Shown here: positions 33,208-40,804 of the stretch, piece after piece
How positions within the stretch are numbered: position 1 is the stretch's first letter
Layout of the letters: each line of letters begins with the position of its first letter
NCBI GenBank assembly: GCA_963677485.1
Contig: OY781964.1
Location: 1,120,001 to 1,184,000 of the forward strand
Source of the DNA: Armatimonadota bacterium
GTDB taxonomy: Bacteria > Armatimonadota > HRBIN16
Reading direction: 5' to 3'
DNA: 64,000 nucleotides
The notes under the pieces: generated by a model
What the model was told of the DNA's origin: nothing
The model's database searches: none
The model's input: the letters and a program-made list of their open reading frames with translations, nothing else
Program-made: the position numbers and the translations under genes

Positions 33208-35967
33208 TCACTCCGCTGTCGGTTTGCAGTATATCCGCCAACGCACCATTTCAGAGGCATCACCCCACAGACCACCCTTCTGTATCTCCAGGCGTAAGTA
33301 GCGTGTGGTGACCGTGGGCAGCGGGTCCTGGGCGTCGAAATTGGTCTTACCTTCGCGGTGGATATCAGAAATGGCCCTCCATGCCTGCCCATCATCTGAG
33401 ATCAGATACCGGTATATCTGCGGGGTATACACGTCCCCGAAGTAGTTGGCACACCGCAACGCGCTGGTGTTGAATGTCTGGGGGGTAGACCAGGAATACT
33501 GCACCCAACGCGGCTTATCATCCCATCGGAGGGTGTAGCTCCCACCGGCGGTCCTGTTGAGCACCTTCGCCTCAGCACTCCGCACAGAACCGGTCACGAC
33601 CGCATCGGGGGCCAGATCAAGTGACGCCAGATCCGGCAGCGCGAGCATATCCTGCAGCACGCCCTCACGATACAGCTTCAGTACCGCAAGGTATTTGCCG
33701 TTCGATGTGGCCTCAGCAAGGCTAAAACCCTCGGTTCTGGGTTTGAAAAGTCGGCTCTCACGCGCGATCCCGTTACCGTCGACCAGGTTAAGGTATAACT
33801 GCTCCGCACCAACCGTGCTGGGTGAAGTCAGCCACACCCGCTCTCCGACCCGCCTCAGCTTGAGCAGCGAGGGCAAAGCCGCGATCACCGCCACATCGCA
33901 AGGCGCGATCTGCATGACGGCCTGTGCACCCTGCCTGGTCTGATCTACCCTGAGAGCGGTGAGGTTCAACAGGTCGACCCAGTGGCGATTAGCCAAAGCC
34001 GGAAGCGCAAGCATCTGCCCCGAAACGGGGTAGTCGTTGTTGTTAAACAGCGTGAAGACGGTCTTCATAGTGCTGGTAAAGCGGTTGCAGTAGACCCCGT
34101 TAGCCAGGGTAGTAACAAGTGGCTTCGGATGCGACTCTGTGAACGCATCGCGGTTATCCCGTTGAATCGAATGGATTCGACCGAGCCAGCTTTCCGGACG
34201 CCCAGCACCCTGCGTTGAAACCATATATCCCGTGCCGTTGAACAGGCAGAGCTTCAACTGGGTGTCGATCTCGCTCTGAGTGCCATCGGGTATGTCCGCG
34301 AATTTAAATTCCGGAAATACAAACCGCATGAAATGCACCGGAATTCGGTGAGCCTCCGGGGAATTCTTCAACTGGACACAGGTGTAGTCTTCCACACCGT
34401 CAAGGTAAGGAAGCAGGCCGTCAACAGCGGGACCTTCTGTATACATGGTAATGTCAGGGTTCACAGTATCAAGGCCGGCCCGCACCTTGCGCAGCAGTTC
34501 GCGGGCACCGTTCATCGCGCCATCCTGCTGAAACCGGCCGGGATTGTGTGCCGGGTTGTCTGATGTGCTTTTGTCGCCTGTTCCCCATCCCACTTCATCC
34601 AGATAGATGGAATCCAGCTTCAGATCCCTCGCCAGGCGGGTGGTTTCGCCTACCAGCCACTTGTGCCAGCCTGGGCTGCACAGCCACATGCACTGGTTGG
34701 CAAACCCCACTTGGAACTCTTTGCCCTGCATCTGCCCCCACTCGGTGCCGTGATCCTTCCAGACCTGCGTGGTCTTGGCGGCAATGTATCCCTCCACATA
34801 GTGGTTTGTCGCAATCCCTCTGCGCTTGCACTCGCTCACGAACCTCTGCAGCTCTGCCAGGCTCCAGTCATCACGGTAACCATAATCACCCAGGATGCGG
34901 TTCTTTTGCACCATGAACTGCATGTAATCGGGGGTGGGCTGTTTGTCCAGTTCGGCCAGCGCGGCATCGCAGTTCGGCTGCGCGAACAGGTCGAAGGAGC
35001 TGTGCAGGAAGCTCAACTTGGCACCTCTGTCGCGGGGTTTATACCATGTGTCGACCCAGTTACGGTAGCTCCTCAACGCATCACGCCAGTCACCGGCTCC
35101 GATACCAATCACCACCGAGGGCACAGAATAGGACTTGCCGGTCTGAAGCGGTATACGCATCCAGTTCACGGCCATGCCGATCCCTTCAGTCGCTTTGAGC
35201 GAGTTCGAAAACGGAAAGCCGTAGTCATCACGCAGTTTGATGGGGTTCACGCCCCTCTCGCGCTTGGTCAGCTCGTAGGATTTCCGCATCATGCTGCAGT
35301 CATGAGTGACCACATAGATACCGGCGGGGCGGTTCACGCCAGCCCCAGATGGATGATAAACATCCATTACCTGCATCCTGGCATACTGGCCGTAGGTTGT
35401 TGCCAATTCGATAGGTATGTCGTTCAACAGACCGCTGAACCGCGGGTGGAAATAGTATGCTTCCTCTGGCTTCGGGCCGATCTTGAGACCATCCAATACC
35501 GGAAACGCGAAGGTGGCGTCGAGTTCGCCGTTTGACTTGAGGGAGAAACACCACGTGCTTTCGAGGGTCGCATTCGTATCAATGAGCAGGTTTACCTCAA
35601 GCAGACGGTTGTCGGACTTCCAGAGCATATTCCAGGTTGTGGTGCTTCCTTTCGCCGTTCGGACGGTCTTGATGCTCCGAGTGGTGAAGTCCAGCGAGCT
35701 GATGTTCCGATTTCTGGCCTTCTGCTGGGGCGAAGGTTTGGCCTCGCGAAGTGTCGCGGCGAAGAACGGCTGAGGCACGCGCGGTTGGTAGATCGTGCTG
35801 AAGCGTCCCATGCTGCGATTTTCGATCGAGGCCACGCTGGGTTTCGTGCTGTCCAGAGTGATCTTGTAGTGCGCGTTGGACAGTTCGGTATTCGGTGTGG
35901 CGGTTACTGAGACCGAGGCAAGTGTGACAAGTGCGGTGATAATAATTACGATGGTGTGGGTTCGCAT
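33208..35967 (-). CDS. Secreted putative glycoside hydrolase (DUF6259-like) with C-terminal F5/8 type C (discoidin) domain
   Basis: Signal peptide, GDWRDAL..YR.W, DSIYLDEVG, TEGP, and C-terminal ISDDGQAW...TRYLRLEI. Confidence 0.7.
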   Translation of the reverse strand: MRTHTIVIIITALVTLASVSVTATPNTELSNAHYKITLDSTKPSVASIENRSMGRFSTIYQPRVPQPFFAATLREAKPSPQQKARNRNISSLDFTTRSIKTVRTAKGSTTTWNMLWKSDNRLLEVNLLIDTNATLESTWCFSLKSNGELDATFAFPVLDGLKIGPKPEEAYYFHPRFSGLLNDIPIELATTYGQYARMQVMDVYHPSGAGVNRPAGIYVVTHDCSMMRKSYELTKRERGVNPIKLRDDYGFPFSNSLKATEGIGMAVNWMRIPLQTGKSYSVPSVVIGIGAGDWRDALRSYRNWVDTWYKPRDRGAKLSFLHSSFDLFAQPNCDAALAELDKQPTPDYMQFMVQKNRILGDYGYRDDWSLAELQRFVSECKRRGIATNHYVEGYIAAKTTQVWKDHGTEWGQMQGKEFQVGFANQCMWLCSPGWHKWLVGETTRLARDLKLDSIYLDEVGWGTGDKSTSDNPAHNPGRFQQDGAMNGARELLRKVRAGLDTVNPDITMYTEGPAVDGLLPYLDGVEDYTCVQLKNSPEAHRIPVHFMRFVFPEFKFADIPDGTQSEIDTQLKLCLFNGTGYMVSTQGAGRPESWLGRIHSIQRDNRDAFTESHPKPLVTTLANGVYCNRFTSTMKTVFTLFNNNDYPVSGQMLALPALANRHWVDLLNLTALRVDQTRQGAQAVMQIAPCDVAVIAALPSLLKLRRVGERVWLTSPSTVGAEQLYLNLVDGNGIARESRLFKPRTEGFSLAEATSNGKYLAVLKLYREGVLQDMLALPDLASLDLAPDAVVTGSVRSAEAKVLNRTAGGSYTLRWDDKPRWVQYSWSTPQTFNTSALRCANYFGDVYTPQIYRYLISDDGQAWRAISDIHREGKTNFDAQDPLPTVTTRYLRLEIQKGGLWGDASEMVRWRIYCKPTAE

Positions 35968-36364: not shown

Positions 36365-37780
36365 TCACGCCGTGGCGGGCACGCCAGTCCCCACCCTGCG
36401 CCCAATGGCGTAGCACACGGCCGCAACGATCAGCCCGGGGTACATCGGCTGGATGTCCGCTGGGAACACCGGCCAGGTCGACGAGCCATGCGCAATGCCC
36501 ACCCCCAGCCAGATGCTGGAGACCACCGGACCTAAAACCATAGCTGCAAGCACCCACTTGCTATGGGCCCGCCCCGTCTGCCAGTAGCTGCCCAGCAGTG
36601 GGATCAACAGCCCGGGGATACACACCGTGCCCAGCAGATACCACAATCCGATCACGCTCTGCACTTTCCACGCCAGGAATATCGCCAGAGTGCTGACCAC
36701 CGCGATGCTCCACTTCGTCCATAGCTGCGCCACGTCCTCATTGTTGCCCTTGCGGATGCGCCACACCAGGTCGCGTCCAAAAGTCACCGCCGACATAAAG
36801 GTAAAGCTCACCACCGTGCTCATGACCGTGGCGAACATCCCCGCATAAAAGGCACCCTTGGCGCCAGATGGCAGCACCTTCTGAGCCAGCAGAGGGTAGG
36901 CGTACATCGGCTGGTCGATATGCCCCAGAATCGCCCGGCTGTAGAGGCCTGCTGTGGTGGTCATGAAGTCAAACAGAATCCAGAACAGGATACTCACCAG
37001 AATGCCTCGCTGGGCCACTTGCGGGCTTTTGGCGGCGGCACAGCGTTGGTGAAAGCCCGGATCGACCAGTGTCTGCATGGCGATGAAGAACCACACGATG
37101 GCATACGACAGGCTGTTACCGCCCAGCCAGGTGAGGTGCAGCGGGGGTAGATGCGCTTTCAGGTAGCCGTATCCGCCGTAGGTATGGAAAAGGAACGGAA
37201 GGATCACAGCGAATCCCGCGAACATGAAGATGAACTGCAGGATGTTCACCCGCACATCGCTGAGGAAACCGCCCTTGAATATGGTCAGAACGCTCAGAAG
37301 GGTGCCGCACGCCAGGCAAACCAGCATCGGCCAGCCAAACACCAGTTTGAACAGCACACCGATGATCAGCACATAAGGAGCCGGGTTGACCAGCAGAAAA
37401 GTAAGTATGGCGCCCGCCAGCCCGCAGCGTTCGCCAAACGCCTTGCGCAACTGATCGGGGATGGTCACCGCTCCGCCTGTCCGCACCTTCGGTGCCAGCC
37501 ATGCCGCGTAGATCAGCGCGAAGATGTAATAGGGCACGCCCATCACAGTCCAGTTGCTCAAGCCAGAGCCGTAGCTCCACTCCCCCACCCCAAGGATACC
37601 GCCATACCATGTAGCCACCAGTGTAGCCACAAACGCCGGCATGGTGAGAGCGCGTCCGGCCAGCAGATAGCCCTCGGAATCGTGTTTGCGTAACTGCCTC
37701 TGAGCCAGCCAGCCCACCAGCACCGCGCTGAGCATAAACAAAGTGATGACGGCGATATCTACCGCACTAAAAGTTACCAT
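36365..37780 (-). CDS. Sodium:solute symporter (SSS/SLC5) family protein, predicted thiamine transporter
   Basis: YLLAGRALT, ATLVATWYGG, TIPDQL, GG..SDV, DPGFHQRC.AAKS, A..MST. Lies in the TPP-riboswitch operon with thiN. Confidence 0.88.
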   Translation of the reverse strand: MVTFSAVDIAVITLFMLSAVLVGWLAQRQLRKHDSEGYLLAGRALTMPAFVATLVATWYGGILGVGEWSYGSGLSNWTVMGVPYYIFALIYAAWLAPKVRTGGAVTIPDQLRKAFGERCGLAGAILTFLLVNPAPYVLIIGVLFKLVFGWPMLVCLACGTLLSVLTIFKGGFLSDVRVNILQFIFMFAGFAVILPFLFHTYGGYGYLKAHLPPLHLTWLGGNSLSYAIVWFFIAMQTLVDPGFHQRCAAAKSPQVAQRGILVSILFWILFDFMTTTAGLYSRAILGHIDQPMYAYPLLAQKVLPSGAKGAFYAGMFATVMSTVVSFTFMSAVTFGRDLVWRIRKGNNEDVAQLWTKWSIAVVSTLAIFLAWKVQSVIGLWYLLGTVCIPGLLIPLLGSYWQTGRAHSKWVLAAMVLGPVVSSIWLGVGIAHGSSTWPVFPADIQPMYPGLIVAAVCYAIGRRVGTGVPATA

Positions 37781-38424
37781 TCCCAGTCAATACCTTCCAT
37801 TTCGGTGTGCATGTGTACCACAATCAATCGACCTGCGCGAAATACTACGGTGACCCGCTCTTGCGTCGCTTCGTTGCTAACTCCGCGTGTGCCCATGGGC
37901 AGAGTCTCATCGCACAACGGCCACTTCAAACCGGATGTGCAGACACCCTCCGCCTGCGGCAGGCCAAACAGCGACACAGTCTGTCCCGCTATCGTATGCA
38001 GCTCCAACGGTTCGGAAGCACAAGGAACGTAGATGCCTTCGTTGTCTGACACCATGCGAAGTGATAGCTGATCGGCCCAGTTGGACGCACAAAGCAGGTT
38101 CCCCAGCTCATGATCCAGCCGTCGGCCGGTGCCACCAAGGATGGTGACACGGGCCGACGGGTAAGACGAATAGATCGCGGTAAGGGATTTCTCAAGGTCG
38201 GTGTTCTCTTGAGTCTCCACTTTACAGAGGCAGTGCCGATACATCGTCGCGAGACCGGGGGAGAGTGAGTCGATGTCTCCCACGATCAGGTTTGGCTCCA
38301 CTCCGGCATCCAGCAGGTGGCGGGCGCCGTTGTCGGCAGCCACTACCAACTCGGAATACCTGGCACAGCGTTGGGTCAGCTCCACAGATGGAGGCTGACC
38401 GTTGAGCATCAGCAGCACTCGCAT
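37774..38424 (-). CDS. thiN: Thiamine diphosphokinase
   Basis: VVAADNGA, IVGDIDS, NTDLEKSL, GGTGRRLDH..GNL, GLKWPL, RGVSNE. Confidence 0.95.
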   Translation of the reverse strand: MRVLLMLNGQPPSVELTQRCARYSELVVAADNGARHLLDAGVEPNLIVGDIDSLSPGLATMYRHCLCKVETQENTDLEKSLTAIYSSYPSARVTILGGTGRRLDHELGNLLCASNWADQLSLRMVSDNEGIYVPCASEPLELHTIAGQTVSLFGLPQAEGVCTSGLKWPLCDETLPMGTRGVSNEATQERVTVVFRAGRLIVVHMHTEMEGIDWEW

Positions 38425-39171
38425 CTAGTCACACGCCCAGAAGTCGTCACCGCTGACCATACCCTCGACGCTGGTGCGGGAAGCATCAAATGCGCCGGAA
38501 CTCGTGATGAACTTGGCATGACCGTCGGCGAATATCATCGTGCCGCCCATGGGGTGCCACATGCTGTAGTAGTCGTAGGGATAGTCGCCGTCATAGCCAT
38601 ATTTATCACTGCCAGGCGAGGTGCGGCTGAAGAAGGGGAATATCTCGTCGCGGATGATCCGCGTCTCAGATGGGTAGGCGAAGCTGTCCAGGCTGACATC
38701 CCGCGCCTGCCAACCGGCCCCGGTGCAGACGTCCGCATTGTTCTGCGTCGACTCGCCGCAGACTATCGAATAGGCGCAGTGGCTGAAGCGGTAGCTGGAG
38801 CCGTAGGCTTGGAGATAGCTGTGCGATCCAGGCACATCGCGTCCCTGGAACGGGGTGCCCCTGTCACTGGGACAGCCGAATACATTCTTGGCTTTGCAGT
38901 AAGGCAGCAGCTCCACCTCAATGCCCTTATGGCCACTCTTGCCTGGGCCTGGATCACTGTTATATGCGTAGAAGATGGGCATCACACCATCTGAGTCTTC
39001 TGCGTACATCATAACGGCTAGACCTATCTGCTTGCCGTTACTCAGGCAGGCGGTCGCTTTGGCTTTTTCTCGTGCTTGTGCGAATACAGGGAAAAGTATG
39101 GCCGCCAGGATTGCGATGATCGCGATCACCACCAGCAGCTCTATCAATGTGAAAGCTGAGTTCCGTTTCAT
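38425..39171 (-). CDS. Prepilin-type N-terminal cleavage/methylation, DUF1559 and H-X9-DG domain protein
   Basis: [76 protein letters not shown] before ATG 39171. Confidence 0.93.
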
Positions 39172-39189
39172 GTTAGTATATACCTCCAG

Positions 39190-39233
39190 AAAGCGAAAAC
39201 ACCACCACGCTCCTGAAGGAAGCGTCGGTGGTG
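39190..39233 (-). terminator. Riboswitch-controlled intrinsic terminator
   Basis: Minus strand reads CACCACCGACGCT-loop-AGCGTGGTGGTG then TTTTCGCTTT. The 5' arm (CGACGCTTCCT) is complementary to the aptamer 3' end (AGGAAGGCGGTCG), forming an antiterminator. Confidence 0.8.
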
Positions 39234-39248
39234 AGAACTCAACCATGC

Positions 39249-39335
39249 GACCGCCTTCCTACACCGGTACTGACCGGGTCAGGTTCCAAGGGTTTTCCCA
39301 ATTGGGATCTCAGCCGGATGGCTCCCCTGGCGGCT
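39249..39335 (-). ncRNA. TPP riboswitch (THI element)
   Basis: Minus strand reads CCGCC-AGGGGAGCC-ATCC-GGCTGAGA-TCCCAATTGGGA-AAACCCTTGGAACCTGA-CCCGGTCAGTACCGGT-GTAGGAA-GGCGG, containing the canonical GCTGAGA, ACCTGA and GTAGGAA motifs. Confidence 0.95.
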
Positions 39336-39368
39336 CACTCCATTGCGGGGGTGAACTTCGCTACTTCC

Positions 39369-39377
39369 ATTATACCA
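39369..39377 (-). promoter_or_regulatory. Extended -10 promoter of the thiamine operon
   Basis: TGGTATAAT on the minus strand about 35 nt upstream of the aptamer. Confidence 0.6.
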
Positions 39378-39400: not shown

Positions 39401-40804
39401 TTAGTGGGTGTTTCGGCCTGATGACATGCGGTTCGTGCGCCACTCGTTGAGTGCGTAAACTGCGAATATCGCAAGCAATGGCTCAATGGCCATGCGATAC
39501 CGCCACTGCCCTTGAGATAACACTGACAGGTTAGCAAACAGAATCACACTAACCACCAGGGCAGCCATATTACGCATCACCGGCTTTTTCAATGCACACA
39601 CCAAACCCCACAGCCCGCATAACACCATGACCGCCCAATATATCACTGACGCCAGTATAAACAGATATCTCCCGATCACAGGCGCATCGGCCGGTACGAC
39701 CTTGGGATAGATAGTGGCATATGGAGGCACCCAGAAGCGGGCTATACCGCAGGCCACTCCAAAGGCCCAGTCCAGAGGATAGTCTTTGATGATCGCTTTG
39801 CCTATACTTTGGTAATATTCTGCTTGTGCGAACCCATCCATTTCGGCCCCGTTGACTACCGGTGGTGCGGGATCCACCAGCCAGGCGGATGTCGATGTGC
39901 TGTCATTTCCTCTATACATCCAGGAAGGAGCACCATGCTTGCGATTGAGTTCTGCCCAGAAACTAGCCGGCATGGGATACGCTCGGGTATACATATGTGA
40001 TGGCTTAAGCTGGCCGTGAGTTCGGCTCCAATGTATTGCCGCGGCAGTCTTGGCTTCGTAGTTATATGTTTGAATTGCAGGCAGGGAGCTTAACTGTGGC
40101 GTTTTGAAAACAACGTAGTTGCGGATCATCCAACCTGCAGAACCCATGATGGTCAAAATTAACCATGCAACGATGTGGATAGGAACGATACCCATCGGTC
40201 GTTTCTGCACCCAAATATAGATCAAGATCGGAATAACTAACGACAGCATGGAGGGCCGTACTAGAATCGCAAAATCCAGCAGGATGGCACTGATGAACAA
40301 AAGTCGCCAGCCTTTAACCCTGAGCAATAGGAGCAGAGACCATAGAAATAGGAATACGCCGAGGGTCTCAGAAAATAACATCTTTGAGGTGATGATGAAG
40401 GTGGGCGATACGCCTGCTAGCAGTGCCGCAGCGATCGCTTCATTTCTCCCCATCTTATGCAGGGCTAGTAAATACACCAGGTATGAGATGCCGAAGAACA
40501 ACACAGTCTGGATCGAAATGACCGCAAGCACGCTGCCATTGGTCATCGCATATATGGCCGCGACAAATGCAGGATAACCGGGCGTTCGCTTGCATTCGGG
40601 CACCAAAGGCGCAGATAAACAGTAGGAATATGCTCCGTTGTACACCATATTTCGGGCGATACGGTTGTATCCGTCTGCGTCATCATCAAGGGCTGAATGT
40701 TGCAGCATCACACCATACCCCGCAAGCAGATTCAAACCTATTAGTAATAATGCCAGTACAACCCACAACCGCTTAACATGATGTGATTTAACTAATTCTG
40801 CCAT
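39401..40804 (-). CDS. Glycosyltransferase family 39 (ArnT/PMT-like) membrane protein
   Basis: DADGY..IA.N, RTPGYP.F.A, SETL, LVRP, W.IRNY, WRYR...EP; multiple TM segments. Confidence 0.85.
   Translation of the reverse strand: MAELVKSHHVKRLWVVLALLLIGLNLLAGYGVMLQHSALDDDADGYNRIARNMVYNGAYSYCLSAPLVPECKRTPGYPAFVAAIYAMTNGSVLAVISIQTVLFFGISYLVYLLALHKMGRNEAIAAALLAGVSPTFIITSKMLFSETLGVFLFLWSLLLLLRVKGWRLLFISAILLDFAILVRPSMLSLVIPILIYIWVQKRPMGIVPIHIVAWLILTIMGSAGWMIRNYVVFKTPQLSSLPAIQTYNYEAKTAAAIHWSRTHGQLKPSHMYTRAYPMPASFWAELNRKHGAPSWMYRGNDSTSTSAWLVDPAPPVVNGAEMDGFAQAEYYQSIGKAIIKDYPLDWAFGVACGIARFWVPPYATIYPKVVPADAPVIGRYLFILASVIYWAVMVLCGLWGLVCALKKPVMRNMAALVVSVILFANLSVLSQGQWRYRMAIEPLLAIFAVYALNEWRTNRMSSGRNTH

Follow-up and report, generated by a model that had tools for sequence, protein, structure and literature searches.

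Why should a riboswitch for thiamine pyrophosphate (TPP) stand in front of a gene for a pilin-like protein? The question is raised by positions 36,365 to 39,377 of a 64,000-nucleotide stretch of an Armatimonadota genome (GenBank assembly GCA_963677485.1, contig OY781964.1, positions 1,120,001 to 1,184,000), which was analysed as a whole and is referred to here as the window. At this locus a TPP riboswitch precedes three genes on the reverse strand, coding for a prepilin-type protein with similarity to the DUF1559 family, which we call PIL1, for the thiamine pyrophosphokinase ThiN, and for a sodium:solute symporter. Comparison across the phylum shows that the pairing of the riboswitch with PIL1 is far beyond chance and that the link to thiamine is strong and conserved. 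The locus is best classed as a riboswitch-controlled vitamin acquisition unit with a pilin-like accessory component, and PIL1 may itself be the protein that captures thiamine in the cell envelope. The features of the locus are as follows, in the order of transcription.

39369..39377 (-): extended -10 promoter element TGGTATAAT, read from the sequence.
39239..39338 (-): TPP riboswitch aptamer (RF00059), 65.1 bits against a gathering score of 54.3, E 1.6e-10.
39189..39233 (-): expression platform, a 14-bp terminator hairpin with a U-tract, from the minimum free energy (MFE) fold of the leader and a terminator-like site.
39183..39187 (-): Shine-Dalgarno sequence GGAGG, 11 nt before the PIL1 ATG, read from the sequence.
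38425..39171 (-): PIL1, prepilin-type and DUF1559-like, 248 residues with an exact H-X9-DG motif (ATG at 39171, TAG at 38425; PF07963, PF07596).
37774..38424 (-): thiN, thiamine pyrophosphokinase (TIGR01378, 132.4 bits, cut-off 76.4; PF04263 and PF04265).
36365..37780 (-): sodium:solute symporter, a candidate thiamine importer, ThiV-like by context (PF00474, 102.3 bits).

The original prediction had described a canonical TPP aptamer, an extended -10 element and a terminator with a complementary antiterminator, and all of these were recovered. The RF00059 match is full-length (model positions 1-105 of 105) and is the sole above-threshold Rfam match within the window. A two-hexamer promoter scan gave no match, and no -35 element lies at standard spacing to TGGTATAAT. 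The leader (MFE -70.0 kcal/mol, z -2.49) is predicted to form the 14-bp hairpin at 39233-39200, followed by UUUUCGCUUUC, and a separate scan flagged a terminator-like site at 39225-39207. Before the 3' arm of the terminator exists, a competing fold that breaks P1 and sequesters the 5' arm is preferred (-49.0 kcal/mol, where the form with P1 reaches -43.6 kcal/mol). By these predicted folds the leader could plausibly act as a transcriptional OFF switch with an antiterminator. The gene junctions are also as first described, with the PIL1 TAG directly abutting the thiN ATG (38424) and thiN overlapping the symporter gene by 7 nt. ThiN exceeds the equivalog cut-off of TIGR01378 and shows the catalytic as well as the B1-binding domain (PF04263 and PF04265), while the symporter is a candidate ThiV-like carrier by its context, namely its TPP control at this locus and the repeated pairing of thiN with the symporter gene in the phylum.

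Orthologues of PIL1 were defined by sequence alone, independently of any riboswitch, in a main sample of 151 genomes drawn evenly from the Armatimonadota and in a closer sample of 41 related genomes. The main sample holds 54 PIL1 genes in 52 genomes, all at E <= 1e-57 and with no match between 1e-57 and 1e-40. TPP riboswitch matches number 127, in 104 genomes, and every one of the 52 PIL1 genomes has an RF00059 match upstream of the gene on the same contig and strand, at a distance of 39-234 nt (median 102); in 47 of the 52 this is the only TPP match of the genome. Linkage of the orthologues to TPP riboswitches had been set beforehand as a refutation test, and it held throughout the sample. 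In the closer sample 17 genomes have a full-length PIL1 match at E <= 8.4e-65, with the next-best paralogues beginning at 7.3e-33, and direct cmscan searches placed the TPP model just upstream of all 16 orthologue loci outside our own genome but of none of 13 paralogue loci. The 38 TPP matches in these relatives are divided between PIL1 (17), a second pilin-like gene, PIL2, that is described below (one, in genome G031) and thi genes (20: ThiC 9, Thi4 4, ThiG 3, ThiE 2, ThiM 1 and ThiD 1). Apart from the pilin-like genes, every first gene behind a TPP switch in the 41 relatives is biosynthetic, and no other transporter type was found there behind any TPP switch.

A TPP model that we built ourselves and applied to 80 loci from several phyla matched the single orthologue locus among them, from a named Chthonomonadales metagenome-assembled genome (MAG), and failed to match any of the 79 other DUF1559-like loci; these 80 loci are among the matches listed for generic N-terminal patterns and have no bearing on the range of PIL1 beyond the phylum sample. 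In a large protein collection, homologues of PIL1 are recorded under generic names only, from MAGs of Armatimonadetes, Fimbriimonadaceae and Chthonomonas. We note two variations on the arrangement. Tandem PIL1 pairs stand behind a single TPP riboswitch at G042:C3:37325-38799 and G055:C264:3593-5068, and in G009 and G011 of genus g2 PIL1 is immediately followed by another prepilin-like DUF1559 gene, of 246 residues, under the same TPP riboswitch (L011:2335-3075 (+), and likewise L037/L038).

The genes that follow PIL1 are less constant. A conserved order of DUF1559 gene, thiN and symporter had been expected and does not hold across the phylum, as thiN directly follows PIL1 in 23 of the 52 PIL1 genomes and the symporter adjoins it in 17; one or the other is adjoining in 24, and neither in 28. 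Because these neighbours are present in so limited a share of the genomes, the constant unit is the riboswitch with the pilin-like gene and not the three-gene operon. Symporter orthologues (E <= 1e-60) occur in 43 of the 151 genomes, and away from PIL1 the symporter and thiN are usually still paired (G005, G007, G008, G009, G011, G061, G085 and others). In genus g2 this pair lies on another contig or, in G011, about 60 kb off, with no TPP match alongside.

What do the genomes with such a pair have in common? When PIL1 and PIL2 genomes are pooled (60 of the 151), ThiC (PF01964) is matched in 3/60 of them and in 82/91 of the others, the ThiE/TenI family (PF02581) in 10/60 and 87/91, and ThiN above its cut-off in 57/60 and 5/91, cross-tabulations that ignore the kinship of the genomes and therefore overstate significance. 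Similar contrasts are found at close range: in a genus of six genomes (g57), G084 is both the only PIL1 genome and the only one without a ThiC match, and of the genomes in family f28, five combine PIL1 with a lack of ThiC and two show the reverse. The three pooled genomes with ThiC are our own (G000), G038 and G118, the ThiC of G118 being in two pieces, and several of the ten ThiE-family matches are weak or fragmented. At G038:C1:1958539-1959085 thiE is split over two frames, and at G118:C10:72979-74814 thiC falls into two pieces and a stop codon interrupts thiE; either case could reflect decay or an assembly error. The riboswitch-pilin pair thus recurs almost only in genomes that lack a ThiC match and are unable to make thiamine, which points to a role in thiamine capture. 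Since most of these genomes match neither ThiC nor ThiE, their requirement is most likely for intact thiamine, and thiamine rather than hydroxymethylpyrimidine (HMP) is therefore favoured as the ligand.

PIL1 is not the only pilin-like gene behind a vitamin riboswitch. PIL2 is a distinct clade of proteins of 231-243 residues, found by protein search in 8 of the 151 genomes at E <= 8.6e-80 (next match 9.1e-47). A TPP match lies directly before PIL2 in all seven testable genomes, the eighth gene being cut by the contig start; in G154 the match scores 47.9 bits, under the Rfam cut-off. PIL2 precedes the symporter gene in G057, G069 and G093; G068 and G154 have both thiN and the symporter gene behind it. 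A third clade is represented in our own genome by a paralogue at C1:3436857-3437582, with orthologues in 6 of the 41 relatives, and here the riboswitch match just before the gene is to cobalamin, in six of six genomes; three of these matches (101.1, 37.2 and 33.7 bits) are over the cut-off of 31.5 and three (30.4, 30.1 and 29.1) are just under it. The cobalamin-clade gene of our own genome stands alone, the adjoining gene being convergent. In a quick IQ-TREE analysis of 56 rows, with the N-terminal 45 columns dropped, PIL1, PIL2 and the cobalamin clade each have a support of 99, and the tree is compatible both with one origin of PIL1 and PIL2 and with two separate recruitments.

Most paralogues in our own genome have no such element. 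The DUF1559-like search gave 37 matches there, and among 20 upstream regions of prepilin-like genes an Rfam match (E <= 0.1) was found only before PIL1 and the cobalamin-clade gene, which speaks against control of all DUF1559 paralogues by riboswitches. The earlier suggestion that these paralogues are solute-capture modules gains support for at least one more vitamin through the cobalamin-linked clade, but for the family at large it is a conjecture, only 2 of 20 having an Rfam element. A tandem array of three nearly identical prepilin-like genes, each coding for 269 residues with the H-X9-DG motif, lies at G000:C1:1441340-1444543 (-) with no Rfam element upstream. Elsewhere in the same genome and outside the window, at G000:C1:2996755-2998023 (L045:369-1637), the strong cobalamin riboswitch of the genome (51.2 bits) lies before a gene for a 327-residue protein with a PEP-CTERM motif (PF07589, 27 bits), which is followed by a gene for a 375-residue secreted protein of no assigned family; on the other side a 16S rRNA gene starts about 400 nt away.

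The PIL1 protein itself is of the prepilin type, with a short basic leader, Gly or Ala at position -1, Phe at +1, Glu at +5 and a hydrophobic helix as the defining criteria. It scores 35.9 bits with PF07963 (cut-off 21.2) and 29.3 bits with TIGR02532 (cut-off 16.3); residue -1 is Ala and not Gly, and either occurs among the orthologues. The DUF1559 match (PF07596, 35.1 bits, cut-off 23.3) covers residues 32-92 only, corresponding to profile positions 2-60 of 268. The H-X9-DG motif is literal (H206-X9-D216-G217), in agreement with the first description, and 13 aligned orthologues share D216, G217 and H218 without exception, with a conservation of at least 90% at H206; the TIGR04294 (H-X9-DG-CTERM) model gives 16.2 bits, under its cut-off of 19. 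Aromatic residues invariant in the clade are Y70, Y119, Y123, Y127, F129, Y191, Y193, Y201 and W205, and of the cysteines C42 is invariant and C100, C132 and C247 are at least 90% conserved. To judge from these residues, the aromatic- and cysteine-rich head would be compatible with extracytoplasmic ligand binding.

An AlphaFold2 model of PIL1, built from an 81-sequence alignment (predicted local distance difference test, pLDDT, 95.4; predicted template modelling score, pTM, 0.87), has an N-terminal helix of 50 residues joined to a mixed head. Comparison with 48,161 chains by VIA-align gave top rows that are nearly all pilins or pseudopilins, albeit at modest Z scores of 3.5-5.2:

6xxd (Thermus PilA4): Z 5.2, root-mean-square deviation 3.8 over 123 residues.
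9iuf: Z 4.7.
4lw9 (Vibrio EpsG): Z 4.2.
5wda (Klebsiella PulG): Z 3.7.

Foldseek found nothing in the PDB at E <= 0.001 with this model, the best match (E 0.39) being to the pilin helix only. Despite the Pfam name 'SBP_bac_10', no two-lobed periplasmic-binding-protein fold is among the best Foldseek or VIA-align matches, and the model, at these modest Z scores, suggests the fold of a type IV pilin whose head is enlarged rather than that of a binding protein. The nearest neighbours of PIL1 by a protein language model are DUF1559 clusters (scores 0.96-0.97). A complex prediction for the symporter with PIL1, using alignments for each, returned a score of 0.00 and a mark of 0.32, and speaks neither for nor against binding. 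For the assembly of pilin-like proteins our own genome encodes one prepilin peptidase (Peptidase_A24), three secretins and eight T2SSE-type ATPases.

What, then, might a pilin-like protein do for thiamine supply? The PIL1 clade very probably has some part in thiamine acquisition. The explanation that we favour, by somewhat more than an even chance, is that the locus is a TPP-repressed thiamine-salvage operon in which PIL1 is an envelope protein that captures thiamine and passes it to an inner-membrane carrier, ThiN then making TPP; the binding, the location and the hand-off are inferred. When TPP is scarce, the aptamer would be unliganded, the terminator would not form and transcription would proceed into PIL1, thiN and the symporter gene. 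PIL1 would either stay tethered through its N-terminal helix or become part of a short pilus or pseudopilus, assembled by machinery resembling that of type IV pili or type II secretion, and its enlarged cysteine- and aromatic-rich head would capture periplasmic thiamine or thiamine at the cell surface. An inner-membrane carrier, here presumably the symporter, would import the captured thiamine, and ThiN would turn it into TPP, which in turn would shut the operon off.

Several observations weigh against this explanation, in addition to the disregard of kinship in the cross-tabulations. Sodium:solute symporters are not known to use binding proteins, and in the 52 PIL1 genomes the symporter adjoins PIL1 in 17, lies elsewhere in 14 and is not found (E <= 1e-60) in 21, so that feeding the symporter, as initially proposed, is not the general mechanism. 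The fold comparison is loose, given the modest VIA-align Z scores, and a profile search of the PDB gave matches limited to pilin N-terminal helices, leaving the head with no sequence relative there. The aromatic/acidic stretch that had been put forward as a binding site for a cationic vitamin is present at residues 190-206 and is conserved only in part, its middle (DGDYPYD) being deleted in 4 of the 13 aligned orthologues. Four genomes of genus g2 that are 93-99% complete (G003, G010, G012 and G013) have no ThiC match, possess the thiN-symporter pair and have no PIL1; PIL1 must therefore be accessory and dispensable for salvage. Our own genome is also atypical in that ThiC, ThiD and ThiE are present too, with a second TPP riboswitch (64.2 bits) before thiD-thiC (G000:C1:980023-983760, L002) and thiE nearby. 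No ThiC or ThiE match was found in the two sister genomes of its genus, and our own genome alone in that genus appears to have kept or regained thiamine synthesis. Finally, TonB-dependent receptors occur in 89 of the 151 phylum genomes, including 28 of the 52 with PIL1. It had been suggested that PIL1 takes the slot of a substrate-binding protein or a TonB-dependent receptor, and our own genome indeed has no match to ThiB, ThiT, PnuT or TonB-dependent receptors. The argument that PIL1 replaces a missing TonB-dependent receptor accordingly holds for our own genome (0 matches), g1 and g3, but not phylum-wide.

The same evidence can be read in other ways, which differ in what PIL1 would do. It might be an enzyme, anchored in the envelope, with thiamine vitamers as its substrates, dephosphorylating external thiamine monophosphate (TMP) or TPP or processing degraded thiamine, with the product then being imported. 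An enzyme would have the same genomic ties to thiamine acquisition, could function where PIL1 stands alone, as it does in 28 of 52 genomes, and might draw its active site from the clade-invariant polar residues H81, D103, R128, R171, R174, E176, D216 and H218. However, the H-X9-DG and CPSD motifs are common to the whole paralogous family, which makes these motifs unlikely as vitamin-specific catalysts, and the modelled fold resembles a pilin, with no enzyme among the Foldseek or VIA-align matches. The parallel clade linked to cobalamin is also more easily explained through binding than through catalysis, and we regard an enzyme as quite unlikely. PIL1 could also be a structural or adhesive pilin that is made in thiamine starvation, for instance for attachment to vitamin-producing neighbours or to surfaces, and that does not itself bind thiamine. 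The class III signal peptide, the modelled pilin fold (at modest Z) and the presence of type IV pilus machinery in the genome are all consistent with an adhesin, and nutrient foraging by fibres has a parallel in the DUF1559-rich Planctomycetes, whose pili-like fibres bind dextran (PMC5394234). It is harder to see why an adhesin should have separate conserved clades for TPP (PIL1), TPP again (PIL2) and cobalamin, which suggest ligand-specific heads, and the presence of thiN and/or the symporter in an operon with PIL1 in 24 of 52 genomes better fits a step in an uptake pathway; we think it very unlikely that PIL1 is only a structural pilin.

A chance insertion of PIL1 between the riboswitch and a thiN-symporter pair, with no role in thiamine metabolism, would be in keeping with the number and mobility of DUF1559-like genes within genomes, as seen in the 37 matches of our own genome and the tandem copies at C1:1441340-1444543. 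It is contradicted because the riboswitch stays with PIL1 and not with thiN or the symporter: it accompanies PIL1 in all 52 genomes, the 28 without an adjoining thiN or symporter among them, and in genus g2 the thiN-symporter pair is elsewhere with no TPP match alongside. We find such an insertion hardly credible. A more far-reaching proposal goes beyond thiamine capture by PIL1 and holds that DUF1559/H-X9-DG proteins are riboswitch-gated, ligand-specific minor pilins on a retractile type IV pilus or pseudopilus, hauling micronutrients (thiamine for PIL1 and PIL2, cobalamin for the third clade) through outer-membrane secretins independently of TonB. This is rather unlikely in our view; if it were true, the paralogue expansions in Armatimonadota and in the phyla of the Planctomycetes-Verrucomicrobia-Chlamydiae (PVC) group would be a repertoire of substrate-specific capture modules.

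The genes on either side of the locus have no evident link to thiamine. They code for a 919-residue protein with DUF6259 and F5/8 type C domains (window 33208-35967 (-)) and for a 467-residue PMT_2-type glycosyltransferase (window 39401-40804 (-)). Only two metatranscriptome runs cover parts of the window (shares 0.07 and 0.06) with contigs that are 90-98% alike. These contigs run from the leader into PIL1 (39058-39363 and 38931-39262) and across the PIL1/thiN junction (38370-38501); carry-over of DNA is possible, a contig is not proof of a transcript, gaps in the coverage carry no meaning, and we give these data no weight.

DUF1559/H-X9-DG proteins are among the largest paralogous families of Armatimonadota, Planctomycetota and Verrucomicrobiota. 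A literature search, with most subscription journals outside it, found no paper linking them to a riboswitch or a vitamin, and no function is assigned to the family in the literature searched. A riboswitch names its ligand, and the PIL1 clade thus gives the DUF1559 family a concrete small molecule for testing, with a soluble PIL1 domain of about 220 residues that suits binding assays. If binding is confirmed, PIL1 would be a new component of bacterial thiamine uptake and would explain vitamin scavenging by many thiamine-auxotrophic Armatimonadota, and together with the cobalamin-linked clade it would make nutrient capture by pilin-like proteins experimentally approachable.

To our knowledge, no described thiamine uptake system, whether ThiBPQ, ThiT with its energy-coupling factor (ECF) transporter, PnuT, TonB-dependent receptors or ThiV, contains a pilin-like protein. 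PIL1 resembles the DUF1559 (PF07596, 'SBP_bac_10') and H-X9-DG proteins of Planctomycetota, Verrucomicrobiota and Armatimonadota in its Pfam match over the cut-off, its exact motif and its N-terminus, and differs from them in a partial Pfam match (2-60 of 268) and a TIGR04294 score under the cut-off; unlike its paralogues, the clade has a fixed regulatory partner. With type IV pilins and the pseudopilins of type II secretion systems it shares the N-terminal methylation motif and, as far as the predicted model suggests, a long N-terminal helix and a beta-sheet head. Unlike the pilins and pseudopilins 6xxd, 4lw9 and 5wda, it has a head about twice as large, no sequence similarity past the helix, and control by a vitamin riboswitch. 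Substrate uptake by pili has its established example in the DNA uptake of competence pili; for PIL1 a filament and its retraction would be hypothetical.

The closest parallel in regulation is with ThiV. Symporters of the ThiV type under TPP control are described; thiV of SAR11 is likely to carry HMP, and for ThiV/SSSP homologues uptake of thiamin as well as HMP is reported (PMC11452348). Like known TPP-controlled thiamine salvage and transport operons, among them those with thiV, the locus described here places a sodium:solute symporter and a salvage kinase under a single switch, made up of a TPP aptamer and a terminator. Unlike in the ThiV systems, the constant target of the riboswitch is the pilin-like gene and not the carrier; the symporter is placed beside ThiV by its family (PF00474) and its context. 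Among nutrient-capture proteins with a pilin-type signal, the nearest precedent is, by analogy, the bindosome of Sulfolobus, whose sugar-binding proteins bear class III (pilin-type) signal peptides and are assembled by the Bas system (PMC3047682). The bindosome and the proposed function of PIL1 have in common extracytoplasmic nutrient capture, a pilin-type signal peptide and pilus-like assembly. The bindosome is archaeal and carries ordinary substrate-binding domains feeding ATP-binding cassette (ABC) transporters, whereas PIL1 is modelled as wholly of the pilin fold and would serve a secondary symporter where one is adjoining.

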